Shown: positions 901-16,284, numbered from the stretch's first letter. The stretch is DNA of 64,000 nt from a virus (IMGVR_UViG_3300020045_005903:7644-71643), one strand, 5' to 3'. Numbers and translations are program-made. The notes: a model not told the origin generated them from the letters alone.

Positions 901-937
901 TTGAGCAATTAAGCCATCCGATAAAAAACATATAACA

Positions 938-1307: not shown

Positions 1308-1322
1308 AGCCACATCACAACA

Positions 1323-1353: not shown

Positions 1354-1369
1354 GCTTGTTAATAATTTA

Positions 1370-1423: not shown

Positions 1424-1469
1424 TAGCCCAACCAAAATGAAAAAACTAATCCTTTGCCTATTTAATTTC

Positions 1470-1599
1470 CCATAACGTACCGCAGGTTTATTTAGTGCGG
1501 GATTTAACAGATAAATTAACTTAAAAGCAGAAAATATGAAATTACTAAAATGGCTATTTGGGAGCAGGAAACCCGCATTGAATAAACCTGTTGTTAGCG
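1470..1599. other. attC-like site S1
   Basis: CCATAAC ... arms 1483-1501/1572-1590 (19 bp, 2 G-T) ... GTTAGCG; ATG of next gene lies in the loop. Confidence 0.8.
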
Positions 1600-1799
1600 G
1601 TAGTCTTTCTTTCAAGGAGCAAATGAAACAAGATATTATACCGAGAGTTTGGCAAATGGCTGAAAAAGAAAAAGAGCATTTGAATTGGTTGATAGATAAT
1701 AACGCACCTAAAGATATGGTTGAAACAAGTCAGCGTTATCTCAGCCATTATAGACAAAGACATAAAGAATATATTGAGTATTCGGATGGTCTGTCATAA
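1536..1799 (+). CDS. Cassette-borne hypothetical protein
   Basis: 87 aa; N-terminus (KPALNKPVVSGS) is encoded by the right arm of S1. Confidence 0.75.
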   Translation: MKLLKWLFGSRKPALNKPVVSGSLSFKEQMKQDIIPRVWQMAEKEKEHLNWLIDNNAPKDMVETSQRYLSHYRQRHKEYIEYSDGLS

Positions 1800-1805
1800 G
1801 ATTAC

Positions 1806-1899
1806 CGCTAACGTAAAAGCATTTATGTCAGGCGGGCATAGATGCAACTTTAAATAATAATGCAAGTGTCCGCCCGCTTGCATAAATGCAGTGTTAGCT
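1806..1899. other. attC-like site S2
   Basis: CGCTAAC-GTAAAA-GCATTTATG(T)CAGGCGGG ... CCCGCTTG-CATAAATGC-AGT-GTTAGCT. Confidence 0.85.
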
Positions 1900-1909
1900 G
1901 CCGTAATTT

Positions 1910-2233
1910 ATGATAAAAGTTTATATAGCAAGTCCATACACATTAGGTGATGTGGCAGTAAATGTCAAACTACAACTTGACACAGTAGATGAATTGATGA
2001 ACAAAGGGTTTGCACCTTTTGCACCATTATATTCTCACTTTCAGCACATAGCACACCCAAGACCTTATCAAGATTGGGTTAAGATAGATTTGGAGTGGGT
2101 AAAGGTTTGTGATTGCTTATTAAGGCTTGATGGCGAAAGCAAAGGTGCTGATGGTGAGGTCAGCTATGCAAAAGAATTAGGTCTGCCAGTATTTTATTCG
2201 ATAGACGATATGTGTCTGTATTATGGCAACTAA
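1910..2233 (+). CDS. Cassette-borne DUF1937/DUF4406-like (nucleoside deoxyribosyltransferase-like fold) protein
   Basis: KVYIASPY ... CDCLLRLDGESKGADGEVSYAKELGLPVF pattern; stop TAA lies inside the TAAC of S3. Confidence 0.7.
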   Translation: MIKVYIASPYTLGDVAVNVKLQLDTVDELMNKGFAPFAPLYSHFQHIAHPRPYQDWVKIDLEWVKVCDCLLRLDGESKGADGEVSYAKELGLPVFYSIDDMCLYYGN

Positions 2234-2320
2234 CGGTATCGGGCTTGGCGAAGGTGGGCTTGTAGGATGCTCAATTTTAGCAGGATGTTTCTGCCCACTT
2301 TTGCCAAACCCGTGTTATAA
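2228..2320. other. attC-like site S3
   Basis: AACTAAC-GGTAT-CGGGCTTGGCGAAGGTGGGC ... GCCCACTTTTGCCAAACCCG-T-GTTATAA. Confidence 0.85.
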
Positions 2321-2389
2321 GCTGGCTGCGGTTATTTACCGAAAAACTCAAATCGAAGCACTAAACAAAAGAATTAAAAAAAAGAAGGG

Positions 2390-3169
2390 ATGGAAATAAA
2401 TAAAATATATAACGAGAATTGCCTTGATACGATGGCTAAAATGCCTGATAAGTTTGTGGACTTGGTAGTTACTTCACCGCCTTACAATATGCGAACAAGA
2501 ATAAGGAACGGACAATACACCACAAGAGAGAAAAGCGAACATTTTAGCAAGAAGTATAAGCATTTTGACGATGCCTTACCGATAAATGATTTTTACGAAT
2601 TTCATAGCAGCGTATTGACCGAACTATTAAGAGTATCGAAAATTGTTTGCTATAACTTTCAGATAGTAACTGGAAGCAAAGAAGCGTTTTTTAAAATCAT
2701 TGGCGACTTTAATAAGGACATTAAGGATATTATCATTTGGGATAAAGGAAGCGGACAGCCTGCAATGCACGGAATGGTTTTAAATAGCTGCTATGAAATG
2801 GTATTGATATTAGAAGATGACAAAAGAGCAGGAAGGGCAATACAGAACGCTAAATTCAAAAGAGGCGAAATGAATAACATTTTGAGAATTGGCAGAGGCA
2901 AAAAAGTATCTGATGTTCACGGTGCAATTTTCCCTGAACAACTACCATTTGATTTGATAAACGCTTTTTCAGAAAAAGAAACATTGATTTACGACCCTTT
3001 TATGGGAAGCGGAACGACTGGATTAGTAGCAAGTAAATTAGGCAGAAAATATATTGGAAGTGAAATAACAGAAGAATATTGTAAAATAGCTGAAAATCGT
3101 ATTAAAGAGTGCGGTGGGCTTTTTTTTAATTCTTTTGAAACGGAATTGTCAAACGAAGCAGGAACGTAG
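2390..3169 (+). CDS. Cassette-borne DNA methyltransferase (N4-C/N6-A, beta class)
   Basis: Motif IV TSPPYN before motif I DPFMGSGTT; CLDTM/DLVVTS N-terminus; IGSEI. Confidence 0.9.
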   Translation: MEINKIYNENCLDTMAKMPDKFVDLVVTSPPYNMRTRIRNGQYTTREKSEHFSKKYKHFDDALPINDFYEFHSSVLTELLRVSKIVCYNFQIVTGSKEAFFKIIGDFNKDIKDIIIWDKGSGQPAMHGMVLNSCYEMVLILEDDKRAGRAIQNAKFKRGEMNNILRIGRGKKVSDVHGAIFPEQLPFDLINAFSEKETLIYDPFMGSGTTGLVASKLGRKYIGSEITEEYCKIAENRIKECGGLFFNSFETELSNEAGT

Positions 3170-3177
3170 CAGCTTGC

Positions 3178-3195
3178 TTATAACTATTATATGTA
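3178..3195. other. attI-like terminal site of array 1
   Basis: TTATAAC followed by TATTATATGTA with no hairpin; 3181-3195 is identical to 12600-12614. Confidence 0.7.
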
Positions 3196-3277
3196 CGCAG
3201 GTCAAGCCAACTAACTAAATATCAATAAAATAAACTGTTAAAAACGTTAAAAATTACAAAGCTACAAAAACAATATT

Positions 3278-3679
3278 GTGAAGCTCGACATCTATTCCCA
3301 AAGGCTAATAACCCAACTAGACTGGTTATATAAAGTATCAGAAGTGTTTATCGTGAATGGTAAATACGAAATGGATATTTGTGACGCAGATGTAAACAAG
3401 CCTTATTTATATGACGATATTTATGACCAATTAATTAAAGAAAATTTTAAGATAGAGTTTGCGCCGGAAGATAAAAATAAAATGTGGCAAATGGCTCAGA
3501 AATGCTTTATTCGTAATGAAAAACGTAACCCTAAAGCCACAGATGAAGTATTGCTGCACAGATATTATAAGAGCTACCTAGCTAAGAAATATGTGCTATC
3601 AAGATTACCTGAGAGAATGAGAATACACGACGAGGAAACGGGGGAAGAAATACGAAGAATAGAATTAATAATTAAATGA
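3278..3679 (+). CDS. Hypothetical protein
   Basis: 133-aa ORF, overlaps next start. Confidence 0.65.
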   Translation: MKLDIYSQRLITQLDWLYKVSEVFIVNGKYEMDICDADVNKPYLYDDIYDQLIKENFKIEFAPEDKNKMWQMAQKCFIRNEKRNPKATDEVLLHRYYKSYLAKKYVLSRLPERMRIHDEETGEEIRRIELIIK

Positions 3680-3873
3680 AAAAACTACACGTAAAAATAG
3701 GGCTGTCTAAAAAAGCAGAAAGGGAATTTGAAAGACTAGAGAAGCTAAAAGACATTCAATCAAAATGTCTCCACGCGGCAGAAAATGGTCAAATATCTTT
3801 ATCCGACACAATAAGGATTATGATGGCAGATAAAAAATCAGAGATTAAGAAAATCCTTAAAAAATATAAATAA
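3676..3873 (+). CDS. Hypothetical protein
   Basis: 65-aa ORF in tightly packed operon. Confidence 0.65.
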   Translation: MKKLHVKIGLSKKAEREFERLEKLKDIQSKCLHAAENGQISLSDTIRIMMADKKSEIKKILKKYK

Positions 3874-3875
3874 CT

Positions 3876-4355
3876 ATGGAAAAATACTACACCCCATTAA
3901 TAGAAGAGTTTCATTACGGGTTTCAGTTTGAATACAAACACCCTCTACAAGTTGCAGGAGAAGAAGCGGAGTGGGCTCTGTATGATTGGAGAAGTTTAAT
4001 GGCTACTATTACACTACACCCTAAAGGCATATCTATTGGAGGATTTTCAATAAAAGATGAATGTTTAAGGGTAAAATATTTGGATGTGGGAGACTGTGAA
4101 GAGTTGGGATGGAAACACATAGGCTCACAATGGTATGACTTAATAGAAGTGCCTGGTAAATTAGGGTATTGGCTTTATGTGAGGTTTAGAAAATGTGGTG
4201 ACGAATCTTTTATCAAAGCATACCGTTACGACCCAAAGGAAAAGAACAAAGATACGGAAGGGGAAAATTACCAAGAAGAAGATTTTTTGTTCAGTGGTAA
4301 CATAAAGAACAAAAGCGAGTTTAAAAAATTAATGATTCAATTAGGGATTAAGTGA
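3876..4355 (+). CDS. Hypothetical phage protein
   Basis: 159 aa; KYYTPLIEEFHYGFQFEY N-terminus resembles a pattern recalled from Bacteroidota phages. Confidence 0.7.
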   Translation: MEKYYTPLIEEFHYGFQFEYKHPLQVAGEEAEWALYDWRSLMATITLHPKGISIGGFSIKDECLRVKYLDVGDCEELGWKHIGSQWYDLIEVPGKLGYWLYVRFRKCGDESFIKAYRYDPKEKNKDTEGENYQEEDFLFSGNIKNKSEFKKLMIQLGIK

Positions 4356-5989
4356 AAAGAGAAATAAGATATTATCAACAAGACGCTTATAATGCCGTTA
4401 TGTCCGCCAAAGCAAAGGGTCATAAACGAGTATTGATTACTATGCCTGGGGGTACAGGCAAAACATTCACTTGCGCTAACATAATCAAAGACTTTGGTCG
4501 CAAATGTTGGATTACACACGAAGAGTCCCTTGCCGAACAAAGCGCTATTGCCATCCTTACAGAAATGGAAATTTTACCCGAAGCAGATATTATTGAAGCG
4601 GTAAATGCTCACGGAGGATTAGTAAATTTACTTTCTAAAAAACCATTTTACTTAGGCGAAAACGCTAGAATAGTTTGGGAAAACGTCGGGATGGTTAAGG
4701 CAGACATATTTGATATTGACAAGCCATTAGTAATATGCTCAGCGCAAACTTTGTGGCGGAGACTCGATAAAATACCTAAAGATTGGTTTAGTGTTATTGT
4801 TTGCGACGAGGGGGATTTATTCGGATCGGTTAGCTTTAAGGCTCCTTTAGATTACCTAACTCCTGAATTAATTATCGGAGCTACCGCAACTGCATTTCGC
4901 GGAGACGGGATGTTAATGGAGGATATTTTTGAAGCATTAGTTTATGACTACCCTATTGAACAAGCCATAAAAGACAAATACCTTACCGAAATTAACGCCA
5001 TTGTTGTTCGCACATCCGCAAACCTAGACGAAGTTCATTCTTTTGGAGGAGACTTTAATCAAAAAGAATTGGTTGAAAAGGTGAATACTTTAGAGCGAAA
5101 TAATTTAATCGTTAATAAGTATATTGAGTATTGCAGCGGACAACAGTTTATTTGTTTTGGCGCAGACGTACAGCACGTAATAGACCTCCACGAAGCCTTT
5201 AAAGAGAAAGGAATAGTTACAACCTATGTGGTTAGCGATAAAGATAAAATGGAAATTGGAACTGACCGCAAAACTATTGTGCGAGATTTTAGGGAGGGTA
5301 AAATAATGGGACTTGTAAATTATAATATTTTTAGTGCCGGATTTGATGTTCGAGATTGCGGATGTGTAATTTTAGGCTGCCCGACAAAATCTAAAAGAAA
5401 GTTTTTACAACAGCTATATAGAGTTACAAGATTAAAAACCGAAAAGTTTGTAAATAAGTTCGGGCAAATAGGAACGGTTCTCGATATTGTTGATGGCACT
5501 TCTAAGCATAAATTAATTAACACTCACGAACTAGACAAAGGTAAGCCAATAGAAGATAGGGTGTTTGTTTCTAATGCAAACAAGCAATTATTAATTGAAG
5601 CTAGGGTTGCTAAAGACAAGGTTTTTGTTACTAATTACAGAAAAGAAGACAAGGTAGTTGATTTATTTAAATTGCCGCTAATTAAGATTAGCGACTCAAT
5701 GAGAATGGGAGAAATGGCTACCGAAGCTCAGCTAAACGCAATAGCTAAATGGGATTATGATATTGTAAATACCGTTTATACAAAGCGAATGATTAGTGAG
5801 ATATTCGGCAAACAAGAAGCTACTGCAAAACACATTTCGTTTTTGAAATGGAAGGGATATGATACGAGTGGATTTGTAAGTGTGGCAGAAGCGGCGGCAG
5901 CAAGTAAAGAGATTAAGCTAAGAGAAGAGAAGTTAGAGAGAGATAAGAACCAAAACAACATAAAAAATAATTTACCATTTAAATTTTAA
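4352..5989 (+). CDS. Superfamily 2 (DEAD/DEAH-like, ResIII/UvsW-type) helicase
   Basis: Q-motif RYYQQDA, Walker A MPGGTGKT, DEGD, GATATAFR, FSAGFD, QQLYRVTR. Confidence 0.88.
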   Translation: MKREIRYYQQDAYNAVMSAKAKGHKRVLITMPGGTGKTFTCANIIKDFGRKCWITHEESLAEQSAIAILTEMEILPEADIIEAVNAHGGLVNLLSKKPFYLGENARIVWENVGMVKADIFDIDKPLVICSAQTLWRRLDKIPKDWFSVIVCDEGDLFGSVSFKAPLDYLTPELIIGATATAFRGDGMLMEDIFEALVYDYPIEQAIKDKYLTEINAIVVRTSANLDEVHSFGGDFNQKELVEKVNTLERNNLIVNKYIEYCSGQQFICFGADVQHVIDLHEAFKEKGIVTTYVVSDKDKMEIGTDRKTIVRDFREGKIMGLVNYNIFSAGFDVRDCGCVILGCPTKSKRKFLQQLYRVTRLKTEKFVNKFGQIGTVLDIVDGTSKHKLINTHELDKGKPIEDRVFVSNANKQLLIEARVAKDKVFVTNYRKEDKVVDLFKLPLIKISDSMRMGEMATEAQLNAIAKWDYDIVNTVYTKRMISEIFGKQEATAKHISFLKWKGYDTSGFVSVAEAAAASKEIKLREEKLERDKNQNNIKNNLPFKF

Positions 5990-5993
5990 GATT

Positions 5994-6152
5994 ATGAGAA
6001 AAATTTTAACACACTCATTGTGGGCAGCAATATACGTTCTATTTATAATAGATTATTTTACAACCGCTGACAGAAACAATACCTGTTTATTTTTTATGGT
6101 AATAATTCTGCTTAACATTTGGATTGAACTTATTAATAATAAAAAACCATGA
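5994..6152 (+). CDS. Small two-TM membrane protein (not in ORF track)
   Basis: 52 aa MRKILTHSLWAAIYVLFII...; fills the gap and its stop overlaps the next ATG. Confidence 0.6.
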   Translation: MRKILTHSLWAAIYVLFIIDYFTTADRNNTCLFFMVIILLNIWIELINNKKP

Positions 6153-6436
6153 AAATAGAAAAAGAAATCAAGTACACCCTATCCATTAATGAACCCGATG
6201 GACACGGAATAGACTACAATAAAAACTTGGAGTCTGACATCGCCGGATTATTAATATCCCTTACTGTCCTACAGACTAATTTAGAGTCTTTAAAAGCCAC
6301 TAAAAAGCTAGTGAAGGGTACGGATAAGAAATTTGTATCTCAGCAAATAAGCTATATTTCAGCTTCTTTAAAGGGGGTTAAAATACTTGTTGTGCAACTA
6401 TGTGATAATTATGAAACTTTAATTGAGAGGAAATGA
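6149..6436 (+). CDS. Hypothetical protein
   Basis: 95-aa ORF in operon. Confidence 0.7.
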   Translation: MKIEKEIKYTLSINEPDGHGIDYNKNLESDIAGLLISLTVLQTNLESLKATKKLVKGTDKKFVSQQISYISASLKGVKILVVQLCDNYETLIERK

Positions 6437-6648
6437 CACCAAAAGAAAAAGCTAAAGAATTGGTTGGATTGTTTGAATTTTCAAACGAAAGCCCTATTCA
6501 TAGAAACGATATTGACTGTGCATTAGTTTGCGTTGATATAATAGACAAAATATTCGTTAAAACTACCCCGCAAGACAATCCTTATGAGTATCTTTTTCAG
6601 CTTGAATATTGGCAAGAAGTTAAAAAAGAAATTACAAATCTGCAATAA
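6433..6648 (+). CDS. Conserved phage hypothetical protein (MTPKEKAKEL...YWQEVK type)
   Basis: Characteristic N- and C-terminal motifs. Confidence 0.7.
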   Translation: MTPKEKAKELVGLFEFSNESPIHRNDIDCALVCVDIIDKIFVKTTPQDNPYEYLFQLEYWQEVKKEITNLQ

Positions 6649-6683
6649 AACAAAATAATATTAAAATCTTACAAACTTGAAAT
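6631..6683. promoter_or_regulatory. Tandem TTACAAA-type operator pair
   Basis: ATTACAAATCTGCAAT and TTACAAACTTGAAAT, 37 bp apart; same arrangement at 17891-17940. Confidence 0.55.
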
Positions 6684-7088
6684 ATGGACAAAAAAGAAAT
6701 GGCTGAAAAATGTCACATTAACATCAGTAAATTTAAACACGCTAATTTATTGACTTGCGAGTGGTGTACTTATAAGCATAAATTAACTACAATATATTAT
6801 ACAGACAACGTAAACCCCGCCGCTTATTGCAGAGAATTGTGGTGGAGTTTTGTATTAAGGTGGCTAAGGCTAAAAAAATATATTACATTTGGAAAGCCAA
6901 CAAATATAGCTGTTATCGAACCTTGTCCGCCACCAATTAAGCAAACAGGGTTTGGAATTATTAAGGACGAACCAATTTCTAATTTTAGAATAAGGTTTGC
7001 AGGAGAAAAAATAAAAGCAATCGTTACCTCAGAAGTAAAAAAAGATTGCGATGGAAACATTTATTATGATATAAAGCCAACTGAATGA
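6684..7088 (+). CDS. Hypothetical protein
   Basis: 134-aa ORF. Confidence 0.65.
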   Translation: MDKKEMAEKCHINISKFKHANLLTCEWCTYKHKLTTIYYTDNVNPAAYCRELWWSFVLRWLRLKKYITFGKPTNIAVIEPCPPPIKQTGFGIIKDEPISNFRIRFAGEKIKAIVTSEVKKDCDGNIYYDIKPTE

Positions 7089-7453
7089 AAAGAATAAATC
7101 TTAACGAAGAGTTTATCCTAGAGGGTAGTGGAGTGTATGAGTTTATCCAAAAGGAGAAAGGAATATCCCTAAAGTTTATTAGGGAGACATACAAGAACCA
7201 CACTCCTAAACCAAAAAAGGAAATAGCAATACCCTTAGAGGCGGACGTTAAGAAATACGCTTCAGATAATGGTTACAATCCTAATTTTATGTGGGAGAAA
7301 ATGAAAGGATATATCGACGCAGGAATGACAGACTCTAGGGGAACCCAAATTAAAAACTGGAAGCTGAAACTTAATCAAGTGTGGTTTGTACCCGAACATA
7401 AAATAGTAAAAGACGAACAAAAGATAAAATTCTTTCAGAATGGAGATAGGTAA
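7085..7453 (+). CDS. Putative replication initiator/helicase-loader-like protein
   Basis: C-terminal W..G..IKNWK motif typical of phage replication proteins; two genes upstream of DnaB. Confidence 0.45.
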   Translation: MKRINLNEEFILEGSGVYEFIQKEKGISLKFIRETYKNHTPKPKKEIAIPLEADVKKYASDNGYNPNFMWEKMKGYIDAGMTDSRGTQIKNWKLKLNQVWFVPEHKIVKDEQKIKFFQNGDR

Positions 7454-7637
7454 TTGGACAAAGCTAGGCTATAAAGCGGAACCAACAGAAAAAGATTTAC
7501 CATTTATTACTTGGGGAGTATTTACAGGCTTTGAAATTTGGGATGATACAGATTGGTTTTTTGAATTAACAACAAAGGAACAATACGAAAGAATGTTTTG
7601 GGGGAAATTAAATTATCCTATTAAGCTTAAAAAATGA
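7440..7637 (+). CDS. Hypothetical protein
   Basis: 65-aa ORF overlapping both neighbours. Confidence 0.6.
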   Translation: MEIGNWTKLGYKAEPTEKDLPFITWGVFTGFEIWDDTDWFFELTTKEQYERMFWGKLNYPIKLKK

Positions 7638-8998
7638 CAGACAACTTACAGCTAATTGAAATAGAATTAAAGCTTCTTGGCACATATATGGACACATCCG
7701 ACCTATTCGAGAAGTGTAACCATCTTGTCTCAGAGGGCATATTCTTACGCCCCGTCACCAAAGCTTCCTATAAAATTATTAAAGCCCTCCATCAACAGGG
7801 AACTAAGCCAGACCAATCCTTAGTGTTTGCACAACTTAAAATTCTAGGATTTTCAAAACAAGACTGCTCCACTATTTTAGGAGTGAGTTTTGATTATTCC
7901 TACGGCCGCCAACCCGAACATTATGTAGATATTCTATTTAAAAATAGCGTGGCGAATTTCCTACTTCCGCTACTTCAAGATACCCACTCAAAACTCTCAT
8001 CTGAAACAGGAGACAGCCTAGAGCTAATGGACTCTCTCAGCGAAGCTATTAATAAAGTTAACTTAGTAGTGAACAATGTAAGTAAAGAAAAACCAACCAC
8101 CGAAATATTTGATGAAGCAATACAAAGAATACTCGACCTTAAAAATAATGTAATAGAAAATGTAGGATATTCTTTTGGACTCAAAGACCTAGACTCTAAA
8201 ACAGGAGGATTAGCAAAAGGAATTACGGTTGTTGGAGCTGTACCTGGAGCCGGAAAATCCTCACTCGTAATTAATATCTTGACAACAAACGCAATAAACA
8301 ATTCTGTGCCAACCCTATTCTTTTCTATTGAAATGCCTGCAATAGACATTATGACCAATATCATTGCTAATAAGTCTAACATTAATTCTAGGGCATTAAG
8401 ACAAGGAGATGTGAATGACGGAGAGATACTGTCTATAAAGTCGATCAAAGAAAGCTTAGGAAGTCATTTTGAGATTGATGATAACGGAGGTGTAACTTGG
8501 CAGTATATTGAAGCTAAGATTAAGTCCTTCCGGAAAAAGAATAAAGTGCCAATGTCCCAAACTATTTTATGCCCTATTGATTACTTACAATTAATGAGTA
8601 ATTCGGCGGACGAAATTAAAGGGACTAGTGATGAGCAAAGGATAAGTAAAATTTGTAAAGAATTAACTAGAATTACTAAGTCAGAGAATGTGGCCATTGT
8701 ATTACTGTCGCAGTTAAGTAGACCACCTAAAGGAGAAGTTCCTAGACCTAAGATGAGTGATTTAAAGGGTAGTGGAGCTATTGAGGCGTGTGCTATTCTA
8801 GTGCTGCTACTATTCCGCCCCGAATACTCAGGTATTCTTACAGACGACAATGGAAGGGATTTAAGGGGATTGTGCGAGATTAATCCTGCTAAGGGAAGGT
8901 ATATTAAACCCGAACCTGTGTATGTAAAATTTGTGGGAAAATATAGTAAATTTGAGGATTGTGATGATAATTTATCCTCTTCTGATTCAGCGCTTTAA
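7634..8998 (+). CDS. dnaB: DnaB-like replicative helicase
   Basis: GAVPGAGKSS, FSIEM, IDYLQLM, LSQLSR, SDLKGSGAIE motifs. Confidence 0.95.
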   Translation: MTDNLQLIEIELKLLGTYMDTSDLFEKCNHLVSEGIFLRPVTKASYKIIKALHQQGTKPDQSLVFAQLKILGFSKQDCSTILGVSFDYSYGRQPEHYVDILFKNSVANFLLPLLQDTHSKLSSETGDSLELMDSLSEAINKVNLVVNNVSKEKPTTEIFDEAIQRILDLKNNVIENVGYSFGLKDLDSKTGGLAKGITVVGAVPGAGKSSLVINILTTNAINNSVPTLFFSIEMPAIDIMTNIIANKSNINSRALRQGDVNDGEILSIKSIKESLGSHFEIDDNGGVTWQYIEAKIKSFRKKNKVPMSQTILCPIDYLQLMSNSADEIKGTSDEQRISKICKELTRITKSENVAIVLLSQLSRPPKGEVPRPKMSDLKGSGAIEACAILVLLLFRPEYSGILTDDNGRDLRGLCEINPAKGRYIKPEPVYVKFVGKYSKFEDCDDNLSSSDSAL

Positions 8999-9054
8999 TA
9001 AATTACTTGCAATTATTTGAAACCTTTTATTTATCTTTACGTTAAAGTAGGTAT

Positions 9055-9243
9055 ATGGAAAATAAAATAGATAAAAATTCTGCCTCAGTAAATATTTATG
9101 CTTGGACTTATACTAACGCTCCTTTATCGGAATTAAAAGAATGGGTTGATTCACAAATTTCTGATGGCAAAACCCACGTAAGATTAGAATTAGAATGGGG
9201 GTATTATGATGACATCGAAAGCTTACACATTACAGCCAAATAA
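9055..9243 (+). CDS. Hypothetical protein
   Basis: 62-aa ORF after promoter-like TTGAAACCTTT..TATCTTTAC. Confidence 0.6.
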   Translation: MENKIDKNSASVNIYAWTYTNAPLSELKEWVDSQISDGKTHVRLELEWGYYDDIESLHITAK

Positions 9244-9247
9244 AACT

Positions 9248-9451
9248 ATGGAAAAAACAATCAGTAACTCATCCCAAGTCACTCATATTAAATGGGCAGA
9301 CAAAATCCTTACAGTAACATTTGTAGGAGATAAGAAATACGAATACCTAGAAGTTCCCCAAAGTATTTACGATGCCGCGATTGCCGCCGAGAGCATAGGA
9401 AAGTTTTTGAATAGTGAAGTGAAGAATAAATTTAAATTTAATAAAGTATGA
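9248..9451 (+). CDS. KTSC-domain protein
   Basis: SSQVTHI..LTVTF..KYEYLEVPQSIY..AESIGKFLNSEVK; start placed at 9248 rather than 9206. Confidence 0.85.
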   Translation: MEKTISNSSQVTHIKWADKILTVTFVGDKKYEYLEVPQSIYDAAIAAESIGKFLNSEVKNKFKFNKV

Positions 9452-10455
9452 GCAAGAAACCAACCACAGAAGTAACGGTATCTAATCCTAAACTTCAAAA
9501 AGACCTAGAGTTAGTCCAATCCCTACAAACCCAAGTGGACACCGTAGGAACTCAATTACTGCAAGTAAAAGTGATGGATGATTCCACACTATCAATCTGC
9601 CAACAAAACCTCTCTAAAGTCAACTCTATAGTTAAAACTATCGAAGAGAAACGAGTGGAACTTAAAGCTCCCTACCTTGAAGCCGGTAAACAAATCGACT
9701 CCCTTTGCAAGTCTATTACCGACCTAGCAGTGAAAAGTATTACCCACGCTAAGTCTGAAATAGCTAATTGGGAAAATGCTAGGTTAGCACTCGCCGCAGC
9801 AGCACAAGCTGAGGTTGACGCAAAAGCTAAAGCTGAAGCTGATAAGATCGCCGCAAATGAAACTCGTAAAAAAGGAATATTAGACTTTATTTCAACTACA
9901 CTTAAACCTTACCTTCAATCTACTTATGACTCTTTAAAATCAGCAGAGGACTGTGATGTATTCTTAGCTAAGATTAAAAAAGACTTTCCTGGAGAAGCCA
10001 AGTTTCAAGAATATTTACAGGACGCTAATCAAATTAGAGATAATTACATAGATTTAATAAATGGTAAAAAAGCTCAATTTAGTGCGGCGGCGAATATCTC
10101 TGAATCTGAATTAGCTTTAATGAAAGAGAAAGAAAGATTAACCCTAATGCAACAAGAACTTGACAATGAAAAATTAAGAGTTAAGCAGCTAGAGGAGTAT
10201 GCTAAATTAGAGAGAGAAAGAAAAGCTGCTGAGGAATTAGCAGAGCTAGAAAAAGCTAAATTACAAGCGGCTGCAGGCCTAGAGAAAACTAAAGGAGTTA
10301 GATACATTGATAAGTTTGAGGTGATAGATTTTGATAAAGTGCCAAGAGAATTTTTATGTGTAGATGAGGCTAAAGTTAAAGCTTATCAAAAGGAGAATAA
10401 AATAGGAGAGATTACCGGAATTAGATTTTTTAAACAATCAAGCATAGTAGCCTAA
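9448..10455 (+). CDS. Coiled-coil protein, DUF1351/Gp157/Gam-like
   Basis: Long coiled coil; KRVELKAPYLEAGKQID; C-terminal DFDKVPREFLCVDEAKVK; stop TAA forms the TAAC of S4. Confidence 0.55.
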   Translation: MSKKPTTEVTVSNPKLQKDLELVQSLQTQVDTVGTQLLQVKVMDDSTLSICQQNLSKVNSIVKTIEEKRVELKAPYLEAGKQIDSLCKSITDLAVKSITHAKSEIANWENARLALAAAAQAEVDAKAKAEADKIAANETRKKGILDFISTTLKPYLQSTYDSLKSAEDCDVFLAKIKKDFPGEAKFQEYLQDANQIRDNYIDLINGKKAQFSAAANISESELALMKEKERLTLMQQELDNEKLRVKQLEEYAKLERERKAAEELAELEKAKLQAAAGLEKTKGVRYIDKFEVIDFDKVPREFLCVDEAKVKAYQKENKIGEITGIRFFKQSSIVA

Positions 10456-10569
10456 CGGTTTGCACATTGGCGTTGTTGCCACAGAATTTAATTAAAAACA
10501 ATAAACTTTAATATTATGACAAAAGTATCAAACGAAGAGCAAAGCAATAACGCCAATGTGCTGTTAGGT
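10450..10569. other. attC-like site S4
   Basis: GCCTAAC (RYYYAAC) ... arms 10462-10479/10544-10561 (17/18 WC, 1 G-T) ... GTTAGGT (GTTRRRY). Confidence 0.9.
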
Positions 10570-10824
10570 GAAGTTACATTGTGTGTAGGCTTCAATGCTC
10601 ACCGATTAAAAGAGAATGACGATTATCACAAAAAAGAATGTGATTTTGTGAAAGCCATTAACCAAGAGATGAAATATAATAAAAGCACTTTAGCTCAAAT
10701 GGTGAACCATCCCGACCACAAAGAATGGCTTGAAGAAAATGAGCAAAAGATTGTGTTAAGCGTGATACAATGGTTAGGAACGCCAGTAGGACAGGGATTT
10801 TTGGAGAAGGTGGCAAAAATGTAA
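10516..10824 (+). CDS. Cassette-borne hypothetical protein
   Basis: ATG in the loop of S4; SNNANVLLGEV is encoded by the right arm and core. Confidence 0.75.
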   Translation: MTKVSNEEQSNNANVLLGEVTLCVGFNAHRLKENDDYHKKECDFVKAINQEMKYNKSTLAQMVNHPDHKEWLEENEQKIVLSVIQWLGTPVGQGFLEKVAKM

Positions 10825-10828
10825 TTTC

Positions 10829-11257
10829 ACCTAACGTTTTCGGGCTAAGAGAAGTAAAACCCTTTAGAGCGGTGGGGGATTTCATCGCTCAAATTAAATA
10901 TAAATAACTCAAATGGAAAAAACATTGAGCAACACAACAGCAAGCCAAGCCAAAGACAACGTGAAAGACATCGTGTTTTGGGGCAATGGCGACACCTTCA
11001 AATTAATTAGCAAAGCATCATCCAAAAATGAAGGTTGGATGAAATCTTCAAAGGCAATGGAAATTGAAGGTGTAGGATGCGTAGTGCAAGTTACCACCCA
11101 ACAAGGTGAGAATATTGCAGAGGCGGTAACTTTTGTACCTAATGTAAAAATTGAGGAAACAAAAGGTGATGATGGAGTGGTAACTTCTCGTAAGTTGATT
11201 GCCATTTAGTACGGTGCGTGGGCAAAGGGTTTTATTTCTTCTTAGCCCGTGTTATAA
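10829..11257. other. Giant attC-like site S5 with a gene in its loop
   Basis: ACCTAAC ... arms 10841-10865/11224-11249 ... GTTATAA. Confidence 0.8.
10913..11209 (+). CDS. Conserved phage hypothetical protein inside the S5 loop
   Basis: 98 aa; GWMKSSKAMEI..GCVVQVTTQQG..AEAVTFVP; AT-rich leader. Confidence 0.8.
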   Translation: MEKTLSNTTASQAKDNVKDIVFWGNGDTFKLISKASSKNEGWMKSSKAMEIEGVGCVVQVTTQQGENIAEAVTFVPNVKIEETKGDDGVVTSRKLIAI

Positions 11258-11296
11258 GTCAGGTGGGCATTTTCGCCCACTTGCGTTAAACAATAT

Positions 11297-11402
11297 GTTA
11301 GTGGTAGTGCTTTAGAAGTATGCCCTGGCTGTAAAACGAAAAATAGACATTGGTACGCAAAAGATTATTGGTGTTGTGCATTTTGTTAGCATTACCGCTA
11401 AC
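11297..11402 (+). pseudogene. Mini-cassette remnant with a start-less Cys-rich reading frame
   Basis: Ends GTTAGTGGTAGTGCT/AGCATTACCGCTAAC are complementary; frame VSGSALEVCPGCKTKNRHWYAKDYWCCAFC* has no in-frame ATG. Confidence 0.5.
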
Positions 11403-11474
11403 GTTTTGCAGCTAATGGCTGGTGGCTTTTATAGGCTGTTAGTTTGTGCCACTTGCCATTAGGTGCTGTTATGT
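11396..11474. other. attC-like site S6
   Basis: CGCTAAC-GTTTT-GCAGCTAATGGCTGGTGGC ... GCCACTTGCCATTAGGTGC-T-GTTATGT. Confidence 0.85.
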
Positions 11475-11535
11475 TGGTGCGCTGGCAAGTGTGTGGGGCA
11501 GTTTTATTTTATTAATTTTTAAAAAAGCGAAGGAA

Positions 11536-11808
11536 ATGAAGTTAACATTATTACAAAGATTAATTGAGTTTGTGATTCAATTTAAATACAAACATAATTT
11601 ACAGCCGACCTACAACTATAAGGTTGGTGACAAGGTGAAATATAACTGGAAAGGAAAAGTTATGCTTAGACCAGTTATAAACGATAGAGCAGAGGATGTT
11701 TTGGTAATAAATGAAGTAAAGCATAAAAGGAATGAGTTTATCAACTATCAAAATACAAGAACAAAAAAACGAGGATGGTTAGATGCTTACTGGTTAAAAC
11801 GTGCGTAG
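11536..11808 (+). CDS. Cassette-borne hypothetical protein
   Basis: Start moved from 11446 (inside S6) to MKLTLLQ after AAGGAA; YKVGDKVKY motif. Confidence 0.7.
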   Translation: MKLTLLQRLIEFVIQFKYKHNLQPTYNYKVGDKVKYNWKGKVMLRPVINDRAEDVLVINEVKHKRNEFINYQNTRTKKRGWLDAYWLKRA

Positions 11809-11837
11809 GCTTTTAAAAATTAATAAAATAAAATTGA

Positions 11838-11926
11838 ACATAACGGTTACAGCTTGCCGATAGTAAGGCAAATACCCGAAAAAAATAAAAAATCATTTGC
11901 CTTATTTTGGCAAGGTGGTGTTAAAT
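11838..11926. other. attC-like site S7
   Basis: ACATAAC-GGTTA-CAGCTTGCCGATAGTAAGGCAAAT ... ATTTGCCTTATTTTGGCAAGGTG-GT-GTTAAAT. Confidence 0.85.
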
Positions 11927-11968
11927 GCAGTGCGGACTTAATTAATAACTAAAAAATAAATAAATAAA

Positions 11969-12193
11969 ATGGCTGACTTAAAAACATTAGTAAAAGACAA
12001 CAAGGTGAAATTCGATTTTTACCGAGCAGGAGTAATGTATTACACCGTTACATCCGAAGAAAAAACATATCGCTTTCCTGTGCCACTTGAGGATATAGGA
12101 GATGCGACATTACTTGCAGAAGATAAAGCCATTTTATTTATGCGTTACATACGAAAGGCAATTAATAGCAATGAGCTTCAAACAGTGCAGTAG
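11969..12193 (+). CDS. Cassette-borne conserved phage hypothetical protein
   Basis: 74 aa; FYRAGVMYY..FPVPLEDIGDATLLAEDKAILFMRYIRKA. Confidence 0.8.
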   Translation: MADLKTLVKDNKVKFDFYRAGVMYYTVTSEEKTYRFPVPLEDIGDATLLAEDKAILFMRYIRKAINSNELQTVQ

Positions 12194-12199
12194 CATTGC

Positions 12200-12328
12200 A
12201 TTTAACGTTCGATGCTTGTGGCAGGTGGCATTAAAAGCACAAATGTAAATTAACCGATAAAGTAAAATTGAAAAACAGAATTTAATATTAACCGCAGACC
12301 GCCACTTGCCTACAAGCATTTGTTAGTG
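12200..12328. other. attC-like site S8
   Basis: ATTTAAC-GTTC-GATGCTTGTGGCAGGTGGC ... GCCACTTGCC(T)ACAAGCATT-T-GTTAGTG. Confidence 0.85.
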
Positions 12329-12350
12329 GTCTGTTTAAAAACAAAAAGCG

Positions 12351-12578
12351 ATGGCAGACTTAGAAAAAATTAGACAAGCACAAATGATTGCAGGTGAAAA
12401 CGCTGTGATTGCAGGATTAAAAGCAAAAGGATTGCTACCTAAAGATGAACAGAGCGAGGACTCGTTGCTATTTTTCAACTTATTTAGAGAAGTAAGAAAT
12501 GAAATAGCAACGGAGGAGGGCTATGTGCTGCAAGATGCAATACGAATAACATTTGATAGATGGATGAAGCGTGGGTAG
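12351..12578 (+). CDS. Cassette-borne hypothetical protein
   Basis: 75-aa ORF between S8 and the attI-like site. Confidence 0.75.
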   Translation: MADLEKIRQAQMIAGENAVIAGLKAKGLLPKDEQSEDSLLFFNLFREVRNEIATEEGYVLQDAIRITFDRWMKRG

Positions 12579-12596
12579 GCTTTGTTTTTAAATTGC

Positions 12597-12614
12597 CACT
12601 AACTATTATATGTA
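12597..12614. other. attI-like terminal site of array 2
   Basis: CACTAAC-TATTATATGTA; 39 bp upstream of the recombinase ATG; 15-mer shared with 3181-3195. Confidence 0.75.
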
Positions 12615-12653
12615 GGATTAACTTGTAATGTATTAAAAATTAAATATATAATT

Positions 12654-13487
12654 ATGGAAATTCCAAGATGGCACGAAAGATATTGTATGGACTCAGCTTT
12701 AAAATATCCAAGTAAAGCAACCCAAGAAAACTACCAAAGTACAGTTTTAGGTTTTTTGCATTACTTTAAAAATGATGTTGACCCCTCTCACATAAAAACG
12801 GATGACATTAAAAAGTGGCTCTTAACTTTTGAAACGATTAATACTCGTAATCATAAATTATGTGGTATAAAATCCTTTTATCAAATTACCGTTGGGATGC
12901 CTTTAAAATTGGATAAAATACCATTCAGCAAAAAGGACAACAAGCTACCGGAAATTTTAGAGAGAGAAGAGATACAGTCATTATTAAAAGTTTGCACAAA
13001 CACAAAACACAAATTAATAATTACAATCCTTTATGCTTGCGGACTAAGGATAAGTGAAATTTTAAATCTTAAATTAATTCACATTAACAAAGATACCATT
13101 GATATTAAATGTGCTAAAGGCAGAAAAGATAGAATAGTTCAATTGCCAACGAGGGTTAAGCAAAGAATTGACGAATATACTTTGGAGTATAAGCCTATTG
13201 AGTATTTGTTTAATGGTCAGTTCCCCGAAAAAGAATTAAGATATAATGAAAGGTCTGTAAACGAATTTTTAAAAAAATATGCTACGTTAGCAGGAATAAA
13301 AACCCACGTTCATGCGCATAAAATTCGTCATTGTTATGCCACCCATACTTTAGAAGATGGAACAACCTTGCCATTTTTACAAGAAATGCTTGGACACAAT
13401 AGTCCTAAAACTACATCAATATATATTCACACATCGAGGCGATCAATTGCAAGACAAACGTCTCCCGTTGATGGAATGGATTTTTAA
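12654..13487 (+). CDS. Tyrosine recombinase (XerC/D / integron-integrase-like)
   Basis: Catalytic set GLRISE, KGRKDR, HKIRH, LGH, TSIY; 277 aa. Confidence 0.95.
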   Translation: MEIPRWHERYCMDSALKYPSKATQENYQSTVLGFLHYFKNDVDPSHIKTDDIKKWLLTFETINTRNHKLCGIKSFYQITVGMPLKLDKIPFSKKDNKLPEILEREEIQSLLKVCTNTKHKLIITILYACGLRISEILNLKLIHINKDTIDIKCAKGRKDRIVQLPTRVKQRIDEYTLEYKPIEYLFNGQFPEKELRYNERSVNEFLKKYATLAGIKTHVHAHKIRHCYATHTLEDGTTLPFLQEMLGHNSPKTTSIYIHTSRRSIARQTSPVDGMDF

Positions 13488-13489
13488 CA

Positions 13490-13768
13490 GTGGCAAGAAG
13501 ACTTAAAATACCCGATGAGCTATTAATCCTAAACCCCACCTTAAACAAGAAGGAACTAAGGACTATCCTAAATGTTATCCTGAATAGCCGCCGGAATAGA
13601 ATGCGTCAAGCCTACATATTTGACATAAGATTACCTAGCTTAGGGAGAATGAGGTCTAATGGTAATAAGGTACATAAACACAACAAAAAGACATTGAGTA
13701 GGGACAGGAAAAGAAAGAGAATTGAAACTAAAACTAATGACTTAAAGAGAGTTAACCTATTATGGTAG
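13490..13768 (+). CDS. Basic hypothetical protein
   Basis: 92 aa, Lys/Arg-rich. Confidence 0.6.
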   Translation: MARRLKIPDELLILNPTLNKKELRTILNVILNSRRNRMRQAYIFDIRLPSLGRMRSNGNKVHKHNKKTLSRDRKRKRIETKTNDLKRVNLLW

Positions 13769-13772
13769 AATT

Positions 13773-13817
13773 ATTTTCATTATTTTGCAACCTTTATTAA
13801 AATAAGTAGTATATTAG
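13773..13817 (+). promoter_or_regulatory. Putative phage promoter
   Basis: ATTTTCATTATTTTGCAACCTTT...AAGTAGTATAT, nearly identical to the 1370-1420 element. Confidence 0.6.
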
Positions 13818-13864
13818 CGTACAATTAAATAAATATATAAACAGTCAAAAAACAGTCAAAAATT

Positions 13865-14566
13865 ATGAGCCTAAACGGACAATCATTCGAGAAAAAACAA
13901 AGACCAATCGCCCCACAAGGGTTGCAAGTAGCTATATGCTACAGCGTAATAGATTTGGGAACGCACATGAACAGTTATCAGGGGCAGGAGCCAAAGCCTG
14001 TATCTCTAGTTCATTTCAGTTGGGAATTTCCTAACTTACCACACCAAGTATTTAAAGAAGGAGACACACCTAAACCCTTAGCAATATTCCAAGAATATTC
14101 AACAAGTTTGGGGGAAAAAGCAAAATTACCAAAAATGTTGCAGTCATGGCGCCTTGTGCCGCCGGTAGACCTAGCAAAAGAGCTTCCAATGTTCGTTGGC
14201 CAACCTTGCTACGTTAATGTAACTCACGCAAAGGATAAGAATAATTCTGAGATTACTTATGCTAATGTTGCAATGAATGGTTTAGGAATAATAAATTTGC
14301 CAAAGGGAACTCAGGTGAATGGATTAACTAATCCTAAAATGTTCTTTAACCTTGACAATTACTCTCACGCTGAATTTGCTAAGCTACCTGCTTGGATTCA
14401 GAAGAAAATTCAAAGTTCTTTAGAGTGGAGTGGTATTGTGGCTAAATATGGTGCGCCGCCAACAGTTGCCGCCACTACTCAGCCTGCTAATACATTTCAG
14501 CAGCCTATTCAAAATCAAGCGCCGATTATTACAGAAGATACGTTTAATACTAATCCCCCCTTCTAG
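13865..14566 (+). CDS. Putative single-stranded DNA-binding protein
   Basis: AICYSVIDLGTH, LPAWIQKKI motifs; Q/P-rich linker and acidic-aromatic C-terminus (..PPF). Confidence 0.55.
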   Translation: MSLNGQSFEKKQRPIAPQGLQVAICYSVIDLGTHMNSYQGQEPKPVSLVHFSWEFPNLPHQVFKEGDTPKPLAIFQEYSTSLGEKAKLPKMLQSWRLVPPVDLAKELPMFVGQPCYVNVTHAKDKNNSEITYANVAMNGLGIINLPKGTQVNGLTNPKMFFNLDNYSHAEFAKLPAWIQKKIQSSLEWSGIVAKYGAPPTVAATTQPANTFQQPIQNQAPIITEDTFNTNPPF

Positions 14567-14568
14567 TT

Positions 14569-14745
14569 ATGACTGTTACGTTAGATAAGAATGGTACTAT
14601 AACTATTCGTCCGCAAAATTCTTTAGAAGAATATGCGTTAAATAAATGGTCAGAAGATAATCTTGGTTCTGTAGAAAAGTTTGAGAATTTACATAACTCA
14701 ATACGAGTAATAAGAACTTTAGACAACGACGACTTGCCTTTCTAA
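14569..14745 (+). CDS. Small hypothetical protein (not in ORF track)
   Basis: 58 aa MTVTLDKNG...DDLPF; fills the gap exactly. Confidence 0.65.
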   Translation: MTVTLDKNGTITIRPQNSLEEYALNKWSEDNLGSVEKFENLHNSIRVIRTLDNDDLPF

Positions 14746-15174
14746 ATGAGCCTAGAAGCTAAAAGAATATCTATACTTAAGACTGAGATAGCTAGCGGCA
14801 TTTATACCCTAGTTATTTCAGACCTTAAAATGCACAAAAAAAGCAACGGAGAATTAATACTATTTGAAGATAATCCAGGAGTGATAGTGAGCTTTAAACA
14901 CGAAGATAAAATACACCAAGAATTATATTGGATAGGCTCTACAAATTACACTAAGCTCCAAAGGATTATCTTACAAGTGGGACTTGACCCGAATAAACAA
15001 ATAATGAAAAAGGAAATTGTCGGCAAACGCATTTATGGACTGATTACAGAGATTAAAACAATGAGAGGTAATGAAGAGATTAAAAGCGAAAAGAAGTTGG
15101 CAGACACCTCACAAATAACTGAGGAGCCTAAATTTAAACAAGAATTAATAATTTATAAACAGGAGGGGTTTTAA
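14746..15174 (+). CDS. Hypothetical protein (possible DUF669/SSB-like)
   Basis: 142-aa ORF in recombination cluster. Confidence 0.5.
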   Translation: MSLEAKRISILKTEIASGIYTLVISDLKMHKKSNGELILFEDNPGVIVSFKHEDKIHQELYWIGSTNYTKLQRIILQVGLDPNKQIMKKEIVGKRIYGLITEIKTMRGNEEIKSEKKLADTSQITEEPKFKQELIIYKQEGF

Positions 15175-15620
15175 TGAATGTCCAAATCAAACATTATGGT
15201 ACGATTTTAAATGGGCGCAAAACCTATTTTAATCAGCCTCTATATGACTCTCAAATTCAATCCTTAGAAGGAAAGCAGTTTGTAGAGATTATTCAAGAGG
15301 TACATAGAAAGCCTTCTGTAAATTCTAACAATTATTACAGAGGAGGAATACTACCAACTTGTTATCAAGCAGAAATGTTTTCTCACTTTGATAACAAAGA
15401 CCAAGTTCACTCTCTATACTTTGCCCCAAAGTTTTTAACTCATATTGAGATTGTAAACATTGCAGGCGAACAAAGAGAGGTGACAATTACAAGAAGCCTA
15501 GCAGATTTAAACCAAGATGAAATGTCTGAGTTTATTACAAAAGTAAAAGCTGACTGCCATCAAATGGGATTAGAAATTGGCGAACCTGCAGATTATTTTA
15601 ATAAATTTTATAACAAATAA
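15174..15620 (+). CDS. NinB/Orf-like recombination protein
   Basis: SVNSNNYYRG and TRSLADLNQDEMSEFITKV..MGLEI.EP pattern. Confidence 0.6.
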   Translation: MNVQIKHYGTILNGRKTYFNQPLYDSQIQSLEGKQFVEIIQEVHRKPSVNSNNYYRGGILPTCYQAEMFSHFDNKDQVHSLYFAPKFLTHIEIVNIAGEQREVTITRSLADLNQDEMSEFITKVKADCHQMGLEIGEPADYFNKFYNK

Positions 15621-15622
15621 AT

Positions 15623-15889
15623 ATGAATCCAACAGAACAATACAGCGAATACCTAAGCCATAACAATATGGACTTGGAAGTATTAGGAGAGTCTTTTGAT
15701 GACCCTATTAAAAAATCAGATAACCAAAAGTTTTACTCGAAGGTTACAATTATTAACTGCGAATTTGGGCAACCACTTCCCAACAAAGACGGCTCGCAAA
15801 ATATCCATTATTCCTTAAAACGGAACGATAGAGAAGAATTGATCGAAGCAGTGAGAGACGTTAAAAACAACATAGAAAAATACTTATAA
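15623..15889 (+). CDS. Hypothetical protein
   Basis: 88-aa ORF. Confidence 0.65.
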   Translation: MNPTEQYSEYLSHNNMDLEVLGESFDDPIKKSDNQKFYSKVTIINCEFGQPLPNKDGSQNIHYSLKRNDREELIEAVRDVKNNIEKYL

Positions 15890-16284
15890 TGAGCTTGATC
15901 CACGATAATAAACTGCGGGCGTTAATCGACAAAAGAATGGGAGAAGTCTTTGGTAGAAACGAACGCAACAACCCTACTAACGGAAAACAGAAGTATCTAA
16001 TTCAAGACGCTGCTAAAAGAGGAATGTCTATTACAACTCCTAGACTAAGCAGATACCTTAAAGGCGAATTAGCAGGACTTACAGAAGACCAAATACTCTG
16101 GGTAGCGACTAGATTAGGAGTGTTTATTAACGTGGGATATGGCAAGCCTGTGCTTACTGATGGAATGCTTAGATATGAAGTTAGTGAGTATAAGGAAGAA
16201 GAGTGTTTAAGTGTATTGGGTAGAATTTTTCCTAGCGTAGAAGTTGTGCCGGAAATTCCTAAAAAGAAAAAGAAGAAAAAATGA
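15889..16284 (+). CDS. Putative HTH (Xre-like) DNA-binding protein
   Basis: GMSITTPRLSRYLKG helix-turn-helix-like segment. Confidence 0.45.
   Translation: MSLIHDNKLRALIDKRMGEVFGRNERNNPTNGKQKYLIQDAAKRGMSITTPRLSRYLKGELAGLTEDQILWVATRLGVFINVGYGKPVLTDGMLRYEVSEYKEEECLSVLGRIFPSVEVVPEIPKKKKKKK

Follow-up and report, generated by a model that had tools for sequence, protein, structure and literature searches.

Integrons are seen as an invention of bacteria, dependent on a single specialized integrase. In the class 1 integrons and in the chromosomal integron of Vibrio cholerae, single-gene cassettes stand in an array and are separated by imperfect hairpins with an AAC...GTT core (attC sites); each cassette has complementary ends, from which its circular form rebuilds a full site, and cassettes are gained or lost at a hairpin-less site (attI) beside the gene of the recombinase. 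How cassettes are made is, to our knowledge, unsolved for integrons. Here we describe a 64,000-nucleotide stretch of viral DNA (IMGVR_UViG_3300020045_005903, bases 7644-71643 of a 71.6-kb virus record; hereafter the window) in which two arrays of hairpin sites separate small genes and one of the arrays is followed by the gene of a tyrosine recombinase (12654-13487). The arrays have in common with integrons the single-gene cassettes, the imperfect hairpins with their AAC...GTT core, the complementary cassette ends, the hairpin-less terminal site next to the recombinase gene where cassettes come and go, the cassette-precise deletions and a recombinase of the Xer/IntI branch. From the sequence, the region is quite probably an integron-like, site-specific cassette platform run by a phage-encoded Xer-type tyrosine recombinase. 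An initial annotation of this DNA had proposed such a phage-encoded platform, composed of hairpin sites, an attI-like site and a tyrosine recombinase, and the core of that proposal is borne out, with the corrections given below.

Other described systems share part of this organization. Xer/dif sites, the single-stranded DNA (ssDNA) hairpin by which phages of the CTX type integrate and the pdif modules of Acinetobacter plasmids likewise combine a small Xer-type recombinase with two arms around a short central region and with modules bounded by Xer sites, and a folded single strand could present such a two-arm site. The sites described here, however, are not chromosome-dimer sites: they are tandem hairpins of variable sequence in an array of phage accessory genes and not at a replication terminus, and the enzyme is phage-encoded and scores under the curated XerA, XerC and XerD cutoffs. 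Shuffling of the promoter-early stem-loop (PeSL) cassettes of T4-type phages is ascribed to homologous recombination between the motifs, and neither a recombinase devoted to them nor an AAC/GTT core, a terminal site or a rule of complementary ends is known to us. As in the window, the PeSL cassettes (PMC2839356, PMC4122927) are small accessory genes lying between conserved stem-loop motifs in the variable regions of lytic phages, and whole genes are gained or lost between close relatives.

Clusters of attC sites lacking an integrase (CALINs) have been reported from virulent phages, including the Polaribacter phage P12002L, by Qi et al. 2023 (PMC9892861). As in the window, attC-type clusters lie there between small phage genes and have DNA methyltransferase genes as cargo, and IntI1 recombined five of the six tested phage sites, among them the predicted attC of P12002L. 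In contrast to our interpretation, the paper treats the sites as integron parts for bacterial IntI1, does not mention Xer and names no phage recombinase; neither section 3.4 nor a term search of the paper gave a description of a terminal site or of natural cassette polymorphism. A search of the full-text literature brought up no account of arrays of this kind that are served by a phage Xer-type recombinase and a terminal site. The earlier statement that no example was known in this phage group must consequently be narrowed: integrase-less attC clusters of virulent phages had been published, but that paper names no phage recombinase for such sites.

Eight hairpin sites of one design were found in the window, distributed over two arrays (1474-3195 and 10454-12614). 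On the + strand each site reads TTRxxxxTAAC, a spacer G-K-T-T-N, a stem of 13 to 30 aligned bases, a loop, the returning stem, a T (sometimes two bases) and GTTAxxxxYAG. The five hairpins S4 to S8 that the initial annotation had placed between small genes are present at these positions (10454-12324), and its observation that a G follows AAC and a T precedes GTT is true of all eight sites in the window. When 11 phage arrays with 47 sites were considered, the G was found in 45 sites and the T in 46, and the polarity relative to the recombinase gene was identical in all 47. The distance from AAC to GTT clusters at 115-129 nt; in some sites it is shorter (46-96 nt), and in four it is long (226-506 nt). 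The long forms that were examined (S5 and two sites of the contig L005) contain open reading frames (ORFs) within the loop, and the stems of S5 recur in the contig L002 around another ORF. The sites were detected with a gapped, anchored hairpin scan, as the stems are bulged and an ungapped scan misses them; this finder is tuned to TAAC/GTTA and performs poorly on the CAAC/GTTG sites of phages Freya and P12002L, which were judged by eye. Folding of the single strand was compared with that of shuffled sequences, and six of seven window hairpins gave z values of -2.8 to -5.5, the remaining one, with a long loop, giving -1.3. A search of Rfam with positions 1-16000 at E <= 0.1 returned no family.

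The features of attC-type sites, namely an imperfect hairpin, an AAC...GTT core and R and L boxes around an unpaired spacer, were thus found in the eight window sites as in the 47 sites of the 11 arrays. The phage sites nevertheless differ from those of integrons in their R box of 11 bp, its fixed T.G end and a spacer of 5 nt on one side and 1-2 nt on the other. Moreover, the phage hairpin stands 5′ of the gene, often with the start codon or a whole ORF inside it.

The ends of each cassette are complementary to one another, and the flank 3′ of one hairpin pairs with the flank 5′ of the next. The pairings quoted in the initial annotation were recovered exactly (10563-10580 with 10818-10835, 17/18; 11920-11933 with 12193-12206, 13/14; 12322 with 12603, 8/8). 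Additional pairing was found between 12334-12345 and 12581-12592 (12/12) and between 11499-11524 and 11811-11836 (25/26), and every further cassette in both arrays follows the rule. The effect was quantified at the seven variable positions of the 11-nt flanks in the 47 sites. Adjacent flanks matched at a mean of 4.67 of the seven positions; the means were 2.28 for the two flanks belonging to one hairpin and 2.08 for all remaining pairs (p = 5e-17 and 7e-10, Mann-Whitney test). The mode for adjacent flanks is 6/7, or 7/7 when the constant outer T.G is taken as a pair, and some of the low adjacent scores come from pairs across long gaps, where a hairpin has possibly been missed. The outer flanks of a single hairpin are not mutually complementary, as had been noted earlier. 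Two other arrangements were considered and rejected. If hairpin elements had inserted into a palindromic target, the two flanks of each hairpin would be expected to pair, which they do not; and inversion by double-strand recombination between inverted halves is at odds with the single orientation of all genes.

On the gene-sense strand a cassette is composed, in order, of the hairpin site, the core T-GTTA, a small gene, the start codon of which often lies within the hairpin loop, and an end xxxxTAAC complementary to the sequence after its own GTTA. Folding of the 499-nt single strand 11834-12332, which covers two hairpins and the intervening gene, predicted three abutting helices (z = -4.8). 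The predicted unit of the resulting chain has an 11-bp R helix, an asymmetric spacer of 5 nt and 1 nt and an L helix of at least 13 aligned bases; in this model it resembles the two-arm recombination site of Xer and integron systems.

The hairpins could alternatively be regulatory (promoters, terminators or RNA-processing stems) and be shuffled by homologous recombination between the motifs, as in the PeSLs, the recombinase being unrelated. Start codons within hairpin loops would fit such a role, as would the expression-like conserved cassette ends (for example AAAAAGCG-ATG on the 5′ side and, behind the stop codon, GCGTGNGTAGGC), and the PeSLs of T4-type phages (PMC2839356, PMC4122927) provide a precedent. 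However, the seven variable positions of the R box covary between cassette ends, which is not required of a terminator. The junctions described below bear further on this explanation.

Both arrays close without a hairpin in an identical 15-mer, TAAC^TATTATATGTA, where the caret marks the recurrent breakpoint; we refer to it as the terminal site. The array 1 copy has no recombinase gene after it. The gap of 39 bp that had been noticed between the end of array 2 and the recombinase gene runs from the end of the motif at 12614 to the ATG at 12654, the last AAC ending at 12603. This association of array, terminal site and recombinase extends to distant phages. In nine lineages a distance of 39-150 nt separates the terminal motif from the recombinase gene behind it, and in eight loci other than the window the motif precedes recombinase homologues of 33-86% identity. 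A scan of viral contigs for the 15-mer gave at least 111 loci, mostly chance AT-rich matches in unrelated viruses, and the seven with an adjoining recombinase homologue were used (L018, L023, L033, L036, L038, L074 and L079). In these, the 15-mer stands 50-150 nt before homologues of 33-49% identity and each is preceded by a hairpin array that obeys the complementarity rule, one of them on a 246-kb contig. Array, terminal motif and recombinase thus travel together down to 29-33% protein identity, which is difficult to reconcile with regulatory hairpins and an unrelated recombinase.

A second motif, CCAATAAAATCAATA, occurs 10-25 nt before the start codon of the recombinase in lineages whose recombinases are only 29% identical (at about 6975-6990 in L005, at about 675-690 in L079, and just before the integrase ATG in the array of Freya_10). 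Behind the terminal site of array 1, where there is no recombinase gene, the motif recurs as a partial copy (window 3215-3235). This motif could be a promoter or an accessory binding site.

The product of the gene at 12654-13487 contains a complete PF00589 catalytic domain (E = 1e-32), and the residues expected of a tyrosine recombinase (R132, K155/158, H222, R225, H248 and Y257) are invariant among 16 homologues. Its scores against the curated models remained below each cutoff (XerA, 178.8 bits against 220; XerD, 142.5 against 329.6; XerC, 141.3 against 335), and the integron integrase model TIGR02249 gave 141 bits against a cutoff of 265, with the match split in two stretches. The protein aligns end to end and in one piece with Pyrococcus XerA (4a8e), whereas VchIntIA (2a3v) aligns in two pieces only, between which IntI residues 178-200, where the IntI-specific insert lies, are skipped. 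Judged by these scores and alignments, it is Xer-like in fold and length, and neither an XerA, XerC or XerD equivalog nor an integron integrase. Since the recombinase is Xer-like and without the IntI insert, the system is integron-like and not an integron.

The orientation of the genes differs as well. Cassette ORFs and recombinase all lie on the + strand with the array upstream, so that transcription runs toward the recombinase gene and not away from it as in integrons. Viewed on the opposite strand, recombinase gene, terminal site with G^TT and cassettes follow one another in the classical order, but the genes point toward the recombinase. The carrier is a phage without sign of lysogeny, and it has two arrays. 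These properties bear on the explanation that the array is an inert piece of a canonical bacterial integron captured by the phage, for which one can cite the attC-like AAC/GTT core and hairpin geometry, and the chromosomal integron fragments in Vibrio phages reported in PMC9892861. Against this, there is no IntI, the best IntI score being the split match given above; the R box is 11 bp long with a constant T.G end instead of the 7 bp of R′′/R′; the genes point to the recombinase and have the orientation of the phage's own genes; both arrays have their own terminal site; the system is conserved, with its own recombinase, in many unrelated phages; and cassettes turn over among isolates of a single campaign, as described next. 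We therefore regard a captured integron as very improbable.

Cassette-precise differences were observed in cultured relatives. Freya is represented by ten Polaribacter phage isolates of 44.0-48.9 kb (Bartlau et al. 2021, PMC8776804), which come from one 2018 sampling campaign and vary in their content of cassettes. Seven of them (Freya_1, _2, _5, _6, _8, _9 and _10) were compared and mapped on Freya_10. Their differences are confined to the stretch before the integrase gene and concern whole cassettes. Freya_1, _2, _5 and _9 carry nested, progressively longer sub-arrays, each of which breaks off at an ...AAC^ and passes there into one common site, ACCCCTATAAC..., located some 45 nt 5′ of the integrase ATG. 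In Freya_8 a single internal unit, reaching precisely from one AAC^ to the next, is missing, and Freya_6 has one unique extra unit of about 440 bp. All seven junctions lie exactly after AAC, and the cassette ends follow the 11-nt rule at 9 to 10 of 11 positions. The junction partners have only AAC in common, and the events are therefore site-specific and not homologous. Exchange through homologous motifs, as in the PeSLs, does not account for these junctions: the terminal site is not homologous to the hairpins, yet all seven Freya junctions, and the P0020 variants described below, join there.

The Danklef phages (MT732458-62, about 38000-41600), which infect another Polaribacter strain, contain 38% of the Freya_10 array in three pieces of 97% identity; cassettes are therefore shared between phage species.

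Uncultured relatives differ in the same manner. In L002 and L005, the recombinase of which is 86% identical, the 335-aa gene upstream of array 2 and everything from 12592 onward are conserved; where the window has 2.1 kb between them, there are 3.7 kb of other cassettes, whose sites follow the same design. The sole block common to the window and the L002 array starts at TAAC, position 10832. An identical recombinase, P0020, was found behind two different last cassettes, each joined to the terminal site at TAAC^. The Freya and P0020 variants together suggest that the terminal site is the place where cassettes are inserted.

Furthermore, contigs from four unrelated metagenomes carry single cassettes of the window at 95-99% identity with other neighbours. 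Similarity starts at 10831/10832 and ends at 11403, 11844, 11845 and 12603, so that each of these ends falls on AAC or one shared G beyond it; a further end, at 11284, lies just before the divergent TAAC end of array 2 cassette 2. One contig joins 11284 to 12203 and so makes adjacent two cassettes that are 918 nt apart in the window. Cassette 2 of array 2 has different neighbours in two metagenomes, where it is 98-99% identical (loose ends 10831 and 11284), the segment of cassette 3 (11292-11402) follows a different sequence in run X1, and cassette 6 is followed in run X5 by a different sequence in place of the terminal site, with the break exactly at 12603. These contigs belong to other organisms, and stretches of the window that they leave uncovered are uninformative. 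The start positions of Logan contigs and GenBank records near sites (L006, L009, L138-L141, Freya_1 to Freya_4) hint at branching of the assembly graph and were not counted as evidence in addition to the differences in sequence.

Gain or loss of precise cassettes in relatives, on which the initial annotation had made its proposal depend, is thus seen in the Freya isolates, in other metagenomes and in the last cassettes before P0020. The crossover that it had placed at G^TT corresponds to G^TT on the opposite strand, but in the gene sense the breaks recur at AAC^, on the left-hand edge of the hairpin. Because the breakpoints cluster at this edge, a cassette is composed of a hairpin and the gene 3′ of it; this unit keeps intact the ORFs that start in a loop, as in S1, in S4 and in the last L002 cassette.

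Paired noncoding ends, some 60 nt long ahead of the ATG and some 45 nt long behind the stop codon, are kept around unrelated ORFs in L002/L005 and in X1 and X5 contigs. The kept ends are 11468-11535 with 11801-11844 and 10836-10876 with 11225-11250 in the window, 4353-4737 in L005 and 4336-4597 in L002; the joints in the X1 and X5 contigs connect 11535 to 11801, 10888 to 11230 and 12354 to 12580. These cases and the ORFs in loops may bear on how cassettes are formed. They also look like exchange via conserved flanks, as expected if regulatory motifs recombined by homology. Weighed against the covariation of the R box and the position of the junctions, regulatory hairpins with an unrelated recombinase nonetheless appear unlikely.

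The recombinase has 707 homologues at E < 1e-10, mostly of 273-291 aa and many of them on contigs of 20-78 kb. Integrase beside attachment site is the commonest phage arrangement, and the enzyme might accordingly be a normal lysogeny integrase with TAAC^TATTATATGTA as its attP, the hairpins being CALINs on which only integron integrases of the host, if anything, would act. Bartlau et al. (PMC8776804) mention the Freya integrase only as a hint of a temperate lifestyle; phage attC sites were recombined by IntI1 according to PMC9892861; and P12002L, whose sites have the design of those in the window, is without an integrase. Among 185,579 genomes (one per species), however, a search with two peptide patterns, of limited sensitivity, found the clade (at least 54% identity) on a single 12-kb contig of a metagenome-assembled genome, with a TAAC^TACTATATAG site 5′ of the recombinase gene, and prophages were not in evidence. 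This single match argues against a role in lysogeny. In addition, cassettes are gained or lost at the terminal site, array 1 closes in an identical terminal site although it lies at a great distance from any integrase gene, and the 277-aa protein has no arm-binding domain. A lysogeny integrase next to CALINs is thus unlikely.

In the mechanism that we propose for the integron-like platform, the recombinase would cut at or beside AAC^ and swap strands between two hairpin sites, whereby a cassette would be excised or deleted. Exchange between a hairpin site and the terminal site would insert or remove cassettes at the recombinase-proximal end, and array 1 would be served in trans. The adjacent recombinase is presumably the acting enzyme. 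By analogy with integrons and with CTX-phage integration, the substrate would be folded ssDNA, of which one strand pair would be exchanged, the junction being resolved by replication. The I2 helix is thought to be needed by integron integrases for folded single-stranded sites (PMC7790495).

Several observations weigh against this interpretation. The recombinase is without an I2 helix, and the ssDNA step is therefore uncertain, being drawn by analogy only. The link between recombinase and sites rests on their co-occurrence. The Freya recombinase is only 29% identical to that of the window, and its terminal site has a different sequence. A minority of breakpoints falls at the right edge of the hairpin (T^GTT): two are seen in run X1 (11295 and 11467), and GTT is also where contig L006 starts. 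The several cassettes with kept ends and an unrelated ORF are not explained by one crossover at AAC^. Finally, any public run contains at most 9% of the sampled words of the window. Because of the right-edge breakpoints, the hairpin module and the gene module can reassort. Each of the three alternatives discussed above nevertheless fits fewer of the observations than the integron-like platform does.

The logic of integrons (array, folding sites and an insertion site by the enzyme) is found here in phages with a shorter enzyme of the Xer type. Tentatively, a large clade of Xer-type recombinases in Bacteroidota phages without sign of lysogeny may have evolved integron-like recombination of folded hairpins without the I2 helix, trading accessory genes (methyltransferases and likely counter-defence genes) cassette by cassette. 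If this is true, capture of cassettes with hairpin sites arose more than once, or predates the I2 insert. It would also account for the fast turnover of small accessory genes in some phages, the published phage attC clusters would gain a cognate enzyme, and the 'integrase' of cultured flavobacterial phages, now taken as a sign of lysogeny, would need to be read anew. The Freya isolates and their Polaribacter host offer a laboratory test system. The coordinates of all features are collected in Table 1.

Table 1. Hairpin sites, cassettes, terminal sites and recombinase gene of the window (positions counted from its first nucleotide; z, single-strand fold against shuffled sequences).
Feature	Position	Strand	Remarks
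Hairpin site S1, opens array 1	1474-1595	+	loop contains ATG at 1536; z = -2.8
Hairpin site S2	1810-1895	+	z = -4.35
Hairpin site S3	2232-2316	+	z = -3.0
Terminal (attI-like) site, array 1	3181-3195	+	TAAC^TATTATATGTA; exact 15-mer copy; no recombinase gene after it
Hairpin site S4, opens array 2	10454-10565	+	directly 3′ of conserved 335-aa gene; loop contains ATG at 10516; z = -5.5
Hairpin site S5	10833-11253	+	25-bp stem; 98-aa ORF 10913-11209 in loop
Hairpin site S6	11400-11470	+	z = -4.3
Hairpin site S7	11842-11922	+	z = -3.1
Hairpin site S8	12204-12324	+	hairpin scan, ssDNA fold
Terminal (attI-like) site, array 2	12600-12614	+	TAAC^TATTATATGTA; 39 nt before recombinase ATG
Xer-like tyrosine recombinase, 277 aa	12654-13487	+	catalytic R, K, HxxR, H, Y present; no IntI insert
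Array 1 cassette 1: S1 and ORF 1536/1622-1799	1477-1812	+	ends GTTAGCGG / CCGCTAAC pair 8/8
Array 1 cassette 2: S2 and ORF 1910-2233 (DUF7768/DUF4406)	1813-2234	+	ends pair 7/8
Array 1 cassette 3: S3 and DNA methyltransferase gene 2390-3169	2235-3184	+	PHROG, E = 1e-46; ends pair 14/16
Array 2 cassette 1: S4 and ORF 10516-10824	10457-10835	+	ends pair 17/18
Array 2 cassette 2: S5 with loop gene and short ORF-less segment 11251-11291	10836-11291	+	
Array 2 cassette 3: no ORF, no hairpin	11292-11402	+	junction AAC-AATAT-GTT at 11289-11299; ends pair 12/14
Array 2 cassette 4: S6 and ORF 11536-11808	11403-11844	+	ends pair 8/8 plus 25/26
Array 2 cassette 5: S7 and ORF 11969-12193	11845-12206	+	ends pair 13/14
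Array 2 cassette 6: S8 and ORF 12351-12578	12207-12603	+	ends pair 8/8 plus 12/12

The virus record has a CheckV completeness of 94%, and genes for a portal, a large terminase and a major head protein identify a tailed phage. Its terminase is about 23% identical to those of Crassvirales phages, and because of this low identity the label 'crAss-like' that had been given to the phage is weakly supported and only loosely apt. The region 9400-14600 had no match by blastn among 50,697 phage records, and scans of viral contigs for near-identical peptides of the recombinase and of both flanking genes gave no confirmed relatives.

Two large ORFs lie on the - strand, one of 2395 aa at 20671-27858 and one of 1429 aa at 32508-36797, the latter matching virion structural protein families. 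A promoter-like element, ttttcattattttgcaaccttt ... agtagtata, has copies at 1370-1430, just 5′ of array 1, and at 13770-13820, 3′ of the recombinase operon; the element may drive transcription of array 1. In L005 an Acb2/Tad1-like anti-defence gene (14105-14350) is located 3′ of the recombinase block, and in L004 a gene for an RtcB ligase (1917-3293) lies within the array region.

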